Made by a program: the position numbers and the translations under genes | Notes under the pieces: generated by a model | Told to the model about the DNA's origin: nothing | Databases searched by the model: none | Seen by the model: the letters and a program-made list of their open reading frames with translations, nothing else | DNA from: a virus | Taxonomy: Duplodnaviria > Heunggongvirae > Uroviricota > Caudoviricetes | Virus record (IMG/VR): IMGVR_UViG_2529293240_000022 | Reading direction: 5' to 3' (one strand) | DNA length: 43,127 nt | Part shown: positions 19,244 to 19,540 of the stretch, piece after piece | Numbering within the stretch: position 1 is the first letter of the stretch | How the letters are laid out: each line of letters starts with the position of its first letter

Positions 19244-19333
19244 GCAGAATATTTTGCTGAAAAATGCGGTTTGCTCACACGGACGGATAACACGAAATCC
19301 TGCGAACTGACAAAAACTAAGTGAATAAAAGTA

Positions 19334-19366
19334 AAAACCCCGTTTGTTGGCTGCAAGCGGGGTTTT
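19334..19366 (+). other. Stable hairpin between endolysin and spanin genes
   Basis: stem AAAACCCCG / CGGGGTTTT with 15-nt loop, followed by GTGTTTCC. Confidence 0.4.
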
Positions 19367-19402
19367 GTGTTTCCTGACTCTGGAAAAGTCAAAGGAGAAA
19401 GT

Positions 19403-19540
19403 GTGTTTGATTTTAGCAAACTGATTCGGGAGATTCGAGTGATGGCTGAAAAATTATCCACCTGGAAGTTCATTCTTATCTGGCTGGTGTTTGTGATTAT
19501 GGCCTCCGGTTATTTCATCGGTCAGATACGCTGGTGGTGA
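19403..19540 (+). CDS. Small hydrophobic ORF (45 aa from GTG, or 32 aa from ATG 19442) between R and Rz
   Basis: AAAGGAGAAA site 7 nt upstream of GTG; translation ...MAEKLSTWKFILIWLVFVIMASGYFIGQIRWW; stop overlaps Rz start region. Confidence 0.4.
   Translation: MFDFSKLIREIRVMAEKLSTWKFILIWLVFVIMASGYFIGQIRWW

Follow-up and report, generated by a model that had tools for sequence, protein, structure and literature searches.

The 298-bp gap between the endolysin gene R and the i-spanin gene Rz (19243 to 19542) in a lambdoid, Shiga toxin (Stx)-type prophage of Escherichia coli is probably an inserted, promoterless, moron-like cassette with an accessory role, one of the alleles in a hypervariable array of genes for small membrane proteins at the R/Rz junction of 21/H-19B-type lysis cassettes. 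The prophage is IMG/VR record IMGVR_UViG_2529293240_000022, and its whole stretch of 43,127 nucleotides is called the window below. The original prediction, made from the letters alone, had noticed that about 300 bp separated two normally contiguous genes and had listed in this space a hairpin with a 9-bp stem and a small hydrophobic open reading frame (ORF) that could modulate lysis. Our analysis confirmed the separation, the hairpin at 19334-19366 with its 9-bp core stem, and the ORF. The ORF is a genuine coding gene, and the hairpin proved not to be a separate feature, since it forms the 5' half of a conserved leader that belongs to this gene. Hairpin and ORF recurred jointly in 16 divergent loci, with compensatory base changes and with substitutions biased towards synonymous ones, which is more than chance would give.

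The 45-codon gene encodes a full-length member of PHROG 6632, a family with no assigned function (E = 1.2e-29, residues 1-45 on profile positions 1-45), and all 23 members of the family alignment (A2) matched the same profile. An hmmsearch of 1.84 billion representative proteins revealed 41 clusters with a matched core of about 45 residues; most of these proteins were 42-54 residues long, and some had been called with N-terminal extensions. The family was characterized by the N-terminal motif x-D-[FI]-S-K-[LI]-I-R-E-[LI]-R-x-M-x-E-K-L-x-x-W-[KR]-F followed by a transmembrane segment, and its members often terminated in G-Y-x-I-x-x-[IV]-[RK]-W-W. Among the aligned members, the length, the N-terminal motif and the hydrophobic stretch were kept down to ~31-38% identity. 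The plus-strand frame was open from 19367, and the related loci were searched with this 57-codon open frame as the query and not with the 45-residue protein. The product had been put at 32-45 residues. The 45-residue GTG form is real, because the residues before the internal ATG at 19442, which would give 32 codons, are conserved family-wide (residues 1-13) and the start equivalent to GTG 19403 is ATG in other family members; the 32-residue ATG form did not stand. The ribosome-binding site claimed for the ORF was located at GGAG 19394-19397, 5 nt before the GTG.

The pattern of substitutions pointed to selection on the encoded protein. Among seven 45-codon homologues, the pairwise ratios of nonsynonymous to synonymous substitution (dN/dS) were 0.05-0.41, about 0.1, and the differences were concentrated at third codon positions (for example 5/0/12). 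All 92 sampled copies were intact and none was disrupted; the sampled E. coli copies encoded an identical protein or differed by 1-2 residues. The segment could instead be a non-coding spacer, made of a stray terminator and a chance frame, or the real gene could be the 95-codon minus-strand ORF at 19186-19473, which is annotated in phage CP-1639. Short chance ORFs are common, and the plus-strand ORF is without annotation in most phage records, while RefSeq annotates it in some genomes as the hypothetical protein WP_000459345.1. However, the codon-position pattern and the dN/dS values fitted the plus-strand frame, homologues at the protein level occurred in unrelated DNA surroundings in Pseudomonas, Azoarcus and Yersinia, and the association between leader and ORF was orientation-specific. 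The spacer explanation is thus already largely refuted by the profile search, the conservation, the dN/dS values and the orientation data, and its probability is negligible.

The small hydrophobic membrane protein that had been proposed was borne out as a prediction. Residues 24-42 had a mean Kyte-Doolittle value of 2.13, and AlphaFold2 run with the family alignment gave two helices only (4-17 and 20-41; predicted local distance difference test score 80.8), of which the N-terminal one is amphipathic. The N-terminal 20 residues held four Lys/Arg, with only QIRWW following the transmembrane segment, and by the positive-inside rule the N-terminal Lys/Arg suggested an N-in/C-out orientation. Searches of the protein and its family against Pfam, NCBIfam, PADLOC and the PDB sequences gave no meaningful match. 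No Pfam model matched at E <= 1, and hence there was no match to PF10805 (DUF2730); no holin or antiholin family and no family of the PHROG lysis category was matched, and no charged cytoplasmic C-terminal tail was present.

The 80 nt ahead of the start codon showed one architecture in 16 of 16 diverse loci with unrelated upstream genes. It consisted of AAAGCGAAA, a GC-rich stem-loop and TTTTCTGTTTC (together hairpin H1), followed by a short hairpin with the Shine-Dalgarno sequence in its 3' arm (H2), typically CCTTG, a 7-nt loop and CAAGG(G)AG. The stem sequences varied among the 16 loci, with the pairing retained. In the window, the core of H1 was the 9-bp stem CCCCGTTTG/CAAGCGGGG with one G-U pair; six of the 14 pairs of the full stem were G-C, and a T-run and GTGTTT lay directly 3'. 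In a 66-nt context H1 folded at -24 kcal/mol (z = -3.9; 1 of 200 shuffles folded as well), and alone at -20.5 kcal/mol. By these features H1 is a predicted intrinsic (Rho-independent) terminator, a GC-rich stem-loop followed by a U-rich tract, and the A-tract before it together with the U-tract after it gives it the shape of a bidirectional terminator. H2 was present in the minimum-free-energy structure, with a mean pairing probability of 0.75 over positions -14 to -5.

A covariance model (R1) built from eight leaders scored 85.2 bits at the window and 37-94 bits, always on the plus strand, in 19 places including the window. Standard pairs filled 91.8% of the paired cells, compared with 77.4% in shuffles and 37-59% when the partners were slid by 1-3 columns, and changes on both sides were found in 17 of the 22 pairs. 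Helices 2 and 3 of the model were 84-92% paired, with double changes in eight of nine pairs. All five pairs of the inner anti-Shine-Dalgarno helix covaried, and the covariation of H1 lay in its inner stem. From a plain MAFFT alignment, RNAalifold retrieved no more than the outer H1 stem, and the covariance-model alignment was used instead. Rfam scans of the R-Rz gap at gathering and at permissive thresholds found no family that covers the leader. The rimP leader was considered and rejected, since its minus-strand match (29.9 bits against a threshold of 47) reflected terminator shape only. The prophage small RNAs AsxR, AgvB and EcOnc and the Pas families were also set aside, as they are located 3' of stx or upstream of the holin gene and not between R and Rz.

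Analysis of the R/Rz junction in other genomes revealed that it is hypervariable in E. coli prophages, with 0-4 small membrane-protein genes between conserved flanks. Of 5,426 complete E. coli genomes, 871 carried the segment at a coverage of at least 80%, as did 40 phage records, H-19B and CP-1639 among them. Junction inserts of four sizes (298, 335, 445 and 642 bp) shared the left arm with H1 and the last 24 nt and differed in their interiors, which held one to four ORFs. The window allele (298 bp) carried one PHROG 6632 gene, that of EDL933 (335 bp) a different gene (..RKYKRFFLRLSIMKGIEVE..AFAIRIVAIAVLVWAIRWW), that of SCU-171 (445 bp) a 65-residue ORF and a 28-residue ORF ending in RWW, and that of STEC299 (642 bp) four consecutive small membrane ORFs. 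The leader was present once in each of the R/Rz junction arrays, at the head. In 933W-like phages such as AU5Stx1, an insert of about 1 kb contained the antirepressor gene ant and a 44-residue membrane ORF without the leader. An ORF of PHROG 4906 (MISDKLITLAKILCVIVG...; 43-44 residues) lay directly upstream of Rz at 2377-2511 of locus L106 (AU5Stx1) and at 793-924 of locus L237; it is unrelated, yet its N-terminus bears a loose likeness to that of the 6632 family.

The flanks of the insert were conserved independently of its content. The left arm recurred in all R-Rz insert alleles, those of the ant-carrying 933W type and of Salmonella phages included, and no promoter, ORF or Rfam match in it accounted for this conservation. 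Together with H1 it was 84-89% identical over about 125 nt among E. coli alleles with different interiors (L237-L239); it was 82% identical in AU5Stx1 and absent from ASU11, in which R and Rz overlap. The final 24 nt (..A-T-C-C-G-x-TGG-TGG-TGA-n-ATG-AAC) were 88-92% identical across alleles with different interiors. These conserved flanks with different interiors would fit shuffling of the kind described for the promoter early stem-loop (PeSL) cassettes of T4-type phages.

The stop codon of the ORF had been described as abutting Rz, and the TGA at 19538-19540 indeed lies 1 nt ahead of the Rz ATG at 19542, consistent with translational coupling. In the trailer (UGGUGGUGA), GGTGGTGA appears to resemble a Shine-Dalgarno sequence, and alleles with different interiors keep this trailer. 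In ancestral-type cassettes the two genes overlap, and the ORF could be a coupling adaptor only, which brings ribosomes to the Rz start after the insertion broke the overlap and whose peptide is functionless. However, the amino acids were under strong purifying selection (dN/dS about 0.1), the length, N-terminal motif and transmembrane segment were conserved in distant members, and many family members had no coupled downstream gene (L097, L101, L104, L107 and L110). It is very unlikely that the ORF is only such an adaptor.

The contiguity of R and Rz that had been taken as the norm held for homologous cassettes. In the mitomycin-induced phage ASU11, homologous R and Rz genes (~82% identical to the window) were adjacent with a 4-nt overlap; in vB_EcoS-813R8 and PhiR49_2 (~74-77% identity), R and Rz aligned uninterrupted to a query with a gap-less junction, without any insert; and in the Qin prophage of K-12, rrrQ and rzpQ overlapped. 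Homologous R-Rz cassettes of isolated or inducible phages thus lack the segment, which is therefore not needed for lysis. A role in lysis had been linked to the presence of the segment in otherwise identical functional cassettes; the segment was absent from functional cassettes, but their R-Rz regions were ~74-82% identical and so not otherwise identical. In a spread sample of E. coli, all 24 listed R/Rz alleles at least ~88% identical to that of the window had an insert, and the 13 listed contiguous junctions were those of alleles at most 80% identical.

The 6632 gene lay between endolysin and i-spanin genes in three enterobacterial lambdoid lysis cassettes with three holin Pfam families: that of the window, that of Salmonella L089/SPN3UB (Holin_2_3, a 162-180-residue lysozyme and PF03245) and that of E. 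fergusonii L093 (Holin_8, GH19 and DUF2514). This placement would suit a lysis modulator, that is, a protein that tunes the pinholin, SAR (signal-arrest-release) endolysin and spanin pathway as an antiholin-like, releasin-like or Rz transmembrane-domain partner and so shifts the timing of lysis. The same slot was kept with a lysozyme in two of the cassettes and GH19 in one, and with the spanin PF03245 in two and DUF2514 in one, and the stop codon was always 1 nt ahead of the spanin start. Other small membrane ORFs filled the slot in EDL933, STEC299, SCU-171 and AU5Stx1, the product is presumed to be a late-expressed membrane protein, and Mu gp25 releasin is a precedent for a small membrane-tethered lysis accessory (PMC9239132). 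On the other side, the homologous cassettes of isolated or inducible phages do without the gene, no holin, antiholin or DUF2730 model was matched, and hypervariable tandem arrays are not expected of a timing device.

The distribution of the gene outside lysis modules also argued against a lysis modulator. Leader and gene were found between baseplate genes (Rac-SA53, SEN34 and a Yersinia similis prophage), between the tail genes K and I (L110 and Pseudomonas phage YMC11/02/R656), in a Mu-like head module (L109) and among ParE/RelB, HicAB, PrlF/YhaV, Bro-N and KilA-N morons. In an Azoarcus metagenome-assembled genome, the gene preceded that of a 772-residue protein with a lytic-transglycosylase-like motif, as judged by eye. 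These baseplate, tail-tip, head, toxin-antitoxin and moron locations implied that the link with lysis is positional, in enterobacterial lambdoid phages, and not general. The modulation of lysis was thus not supported in the form in which it had been proposed, and we consider it unlikely. The protein is weakly favoured to be accessory, with a membrane role outside the core lysis machinery.

The leader was also found ahead of other cargo. Model R1 detected extra leaders upstream of PHROG 12997 ORFs (in L093, twice in L097, and in L104), sometimes in tandem with a 6632 gene, and upstream of a 60-residue membrane ORF in L110; two or three leader copies per locus were present in L093, L097, L110 and L179. 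Tandem arrays of two to four small membrane ORFs were seen in L093 (3679-4138), L097 (3920-6384), L110 (2411-3650), L179 (8010-9550) and L237 (584-1141), and most units in these five arrays had their own leader copy. In L110, two leader copies were near-identical, and the ORF bodies after them differed.

An H1-only pattern scanned against IMG/VR matched at least 120 stretches, and the counts of downstream ORFs given here rest on the 88 matches listed. In 71 of these 88, a complete same-strand ORF of 25-80 residues followed the hairpin at 28-57 nt (mode 32-37 nt), and 63 of the 71 contained a transmembrane-like segment. These 63 ORFs, 39 of which ended in WW, represented 49 distinct proteins, 26 of them with the WW ending. 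An ORF of at least 60 residues started within 12 nt of the stop codon in 37 of the 63. In the opposite direction from the hairpin, the same 88 matches had seven small ORFs, none of them transmembrane-like.

No promoter was detected in the cassette. A consensus scan found no sigma-70-like site within 100 nt upstream in any of 14 loci, so that expression should depend on Q-antiterminated late transcription; Q antitermination is what switches on lambdoid late operons (PMC2629481), and Q-type antiterminator genes were also present in L093 and SPN3UB. No antisense promoter was conserved: weak minus-strand sites occurred in 4 of the 14 loci at differing positions, and the one in the window (19525..19496) was not shared with other loci. 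The weak site of the window would fit, and a conserved one would have favoured, a type I toxin-antitoxin-like arrangement, in which mRNA structure, together with an antisense RNA ending at the bidirectional hairpin, prevents the translation of a small hydrophobic toxin. The small single-pass hydrophobic peptide, the structured mRNA with its Shine-Dalgarno sequence predicted to be sequestered in H2, the good minus-strand U-tract at H1 (UUUCGCUUUU) and the ParE/RelB, HicAB or PrlF/YhaV modules next to some homologues are all in line with such an arrangement. However, the scattered weak antisense sites and the missing sense promoters speak against it, as do the constant co-orientation of the gene with late operons, often abutting the start of the next gene, and the lack of any match to PADLOC or Pfam toxin families. 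We regard a type I system as highly improbable.

For the moron-like cassette, a course of events can be proposed. In the lysogen, H1 would halt unmodified RNA polymerase, and the promoterless gene would stay silent. After induction, Q-modified polymerase from pR' would pass H1, and H2 would hold translation initiation low. Ribosomes ending at the UGA, within the Shine-Dalgarno-like GGUGGUGA, could be passed to the Rz AUG, which would restore the coupling lost through the insertion. Late in infection, the 45-residue protein would then enter the inner membrane, its N-terminus on the inner side. As for its function, a fast-evolving membrane role in host or phage interaction, for example exclusion or counter-defence, is somewhat more likely than a lysis clock, since one leader drives different small membrane proteins, whose genes form tandem arrays and are exchanged between conserved flanks. 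We propose, as a tentative idea that may well not hold, that the two-hairpin leader and the RWW-stop trailer mark a widespread kind of cassette that has gone undescribed, promoterless and exchangeable, with a single-pass membrane microprotein as its product. Such cassettes would lie in the late operons of temperate proteobacterial phages, several of these with a Q-type antiterminator, either singly or in tandem arrays, and would make junctions such as R/Rz hypervariable. They would be a temperate-phage counterpart of T4 PeSL or integron-like shuffling and would probably mark an arms-race locus.

Several points weigh against this picture. Termination at H1, read-through by Q-modified polymerase and occlusion of the Shine-Dalgarno sequence are predicted from the sequence, and the 45-residue peptide was not present in the ribosome-profiling supplements for strain Sakai. 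The covariation counts come from an alignment fitted to the model itself, a bias towards the structure, and H1 is symmetric and could act on the minus strand instead. The IMG/VR hairpin pattern was derived from family members, so that about one third of its matches were close relatives. Single-linkage BLASTP joined 46 of the 49 distinct small ORFs listed, probably through hydrophobic bias, so that what look like different families may be a single fast-evolving superfamily. The arms-race role is read from the pattern of occurrence. In the window itself, an IS2 element between Q/pR' and holin S means that late expression may be impaired; the element may separate the lysis and late genes from Q/pR', and the prophage may thus be defective for late expression.

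The features of the cassette and its surroundings are given in plus-strand order in Table 1. The N-terminus of the endolysin was Ala/Gly-rich and SAR-like. Holin S and R adjoin in phage ASU11, and the DUF1327/YdfR gene of the window is accordingly a second accessory insertion in the lysis cassette. Upstream of Nu1, 20263-20303 (GGGCGGCGACCTCGCGGGTTTTCGCTATTTATGAAAATTTT) is a putative lambda-like cos sequence. Both isrK and the C4 antisense RNA were present twice in tandem, which marks a P1/P7-type antirepressor immunity region, and a full-length match to Rfam IS009 (225 bits) lay near the end of the window at 42886-43084. STnc100 is related to the PasD small RNAs (2026 preprint).

Table 1. Positions of the cassette elements and neighbouring features in the window
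Feature	Position	Strand	Description
Q antiterminator gene	11957-12358	+	PF06530, E = 1.7e-52
Three tRNA genes and STnc100 small RNA	14015-14532 and 5837-6894 (given for these RNAs plus isrK/C4)		Downstream of Q
NanS-p-type esterase gene	14755-16608		
IS2 element	16720-17993	-	InsC- and InsD-like ORFs; between the NanS-p-type esterase gene and holin S
Holin S	18095-18310	+	PF04971; phage-21/H-19B-type lysis cassette
DUF1327/YdfR gene	18315-18659		Between holin S and endolysin R
Endolysin R	18710-19243	+	PF00959 lysozyme, E = 2.8e-24; PHROG 7 endolysin; RefSeq 'lysozyme'
Left arm	19244..19326	+	Non-coding linker, 83 nt; mini-hairpin GGAT..ATCC at 19285-19300
Conserved structured leader	19327..19405	+	79 nt; H1, spacer, H2, Shine-Dalgarno sequence, start codon
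H1, intrinsic-terminator-type hairpin	19334..19366	+	AAAACCCCGTTTG-TTGGC-TGCAAGCGGGGTTTT, 14 pairs
H2, anti-Shine-Dalgarno hairpin	19370..19398	+	TTTCCTGACT; AGTC..AGGAGA paired, GGAG 19394-19397 in 3' arm
45-codon gene	19403..19540	+	GTG start, TGA stop; predicted single-pass inner-membrane protein VFDFSKLIREIRVMAEKLSTWKFILIWLVFVIMASGYFIGQIRWW; PHROG 6632; RefSeq WP_000459345.1
Trailer/junction	19529..19544	+	CGC TGG TGG TGA A ATG; C-terminal RWW, stop, 1 nt, Rz start
Rz i-spanin	19542-20009	+	PF03245, E = 8e-49
Rz1 o-spanin	19762-19947	+	Embedded in Rz; PF06085, E = 7.6e-21
Lambda-like cos/Nu1/terminase region	Nu1 at 20444-20992	+	After the lysis cassette

The gene is already catalogued in PHROG and as a RefSeq hypothetical protein, and the leader and the cassette behaviour appear to be undescribed in the sources searched. 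A search of the full-text literature found no description of the ORF, and a preprint on the microproteome of Enterobacteriaceae was without discussion of it. The window protein is a full-length member of the PHROG 6632/WP_000459345.1 entry, but the entry carries no function, structure, leader or cassette description. Phage annotation systematically misses small membrane proteins, and most of the Stx-phage records examined leave the 6632 gene unannotated. If our reading is true, a conserved and recognisable RNA leader predicts the genes of transmembrane microproteins (63 of the 88 IMG/VR matches listed, against 0 of 88 in the opposite direction) and offers a practical way to find them, and the architecture suggests a regulatory logic by which proteins that might be toxic to the membrane are made only under antiterminated late transcription. 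In Shiga-toxin-type prophages, the R/Rz junction would then be a hypervariable accessory locus, with products that could act on lysis and the release of toxin, on superinfection or on the defence of the host.

Among small membrane proteins of lysis cassettes, the Mu gp25 releasin (DUF2730; PMC9239132), antiholins and the pinholin S21 are comparable, as the 6632 protein too is a small membrane protein encoded beside a SAR-type endolysin and a spanin and presumably expressed late. The releasin, however, has 99 residues in an N-out/C-in orientation, with an N-terminal transmembrane domain and a 73-residue cytoplasmic domain, and did not match the 45-residue protein in sequence. The latter has a predicted N-in/C-out orientation, in which about 20 residues form a cytoplasmic helix and the transmembrane segment occupies the C-terminal half, and unlike such lysis accessories, the 6632 family is not confined to lysis modules. 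The type I toxins Hok, Ldr, Ibs, TisB and ZorO resemble it as hydrophobic single-helix peptides of fewer than 60 residues with a ribosome-binding site buried in mRNA structure. In contrast to these, the cassette has neither its own promoter nor a conserved antisense promoter, and its gene is co-directional in late operons and coupled downstream.

The PeSL cassettes of T4-type phages (Arbiol et al. 2010, PMC2839356; Comeau et al. 2014, PMC4122927) are similar in that a repeated terminator stem-loop motif flanks small non-essential ORFs. Those ORFs lie in hyperplastic regions, and their pattern suggests modular shuffling by recombination between motif copies (PMC2839356, PMC4122927). However, in a PeSL the stem-loop is paired with a strong sigma-70 early promoter, and PeSLs belong to lytic T4-like myoviruses, whereas the present cassette is promoterless and has an anti-Shine-Dalgarno hairpin as its second element. 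Its hosts are temperate, several with a Q-type antiterminator, and its cargo is almost always a single-pass membrane protein. The morons of lambdoid phages (the concept of Juhala and Hendrix; PMC2629481, PMC4104026) share more with it: extra DNA at a late-operon junction that is absent from close relatives, non-essential accessory genes, a mosaic distribution, and even the same R/Rz junction, which hosts the ant moron in 933W-like phages. Classical morons are usually expressed independently from their own promoter, with a terminator downstream, and are often active in the lysogen, whereas no promoter was detected in the cassette, the terminator-type hairpin precedes the gene, and the next late gene follows directly at the 3' end. 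The element is best filed as a variation on this moron or mobile-regulatory-cassette theme, in which a structured leader that lacks a promoter is followed by a microprotein gene and by a trailer abutting the next start.

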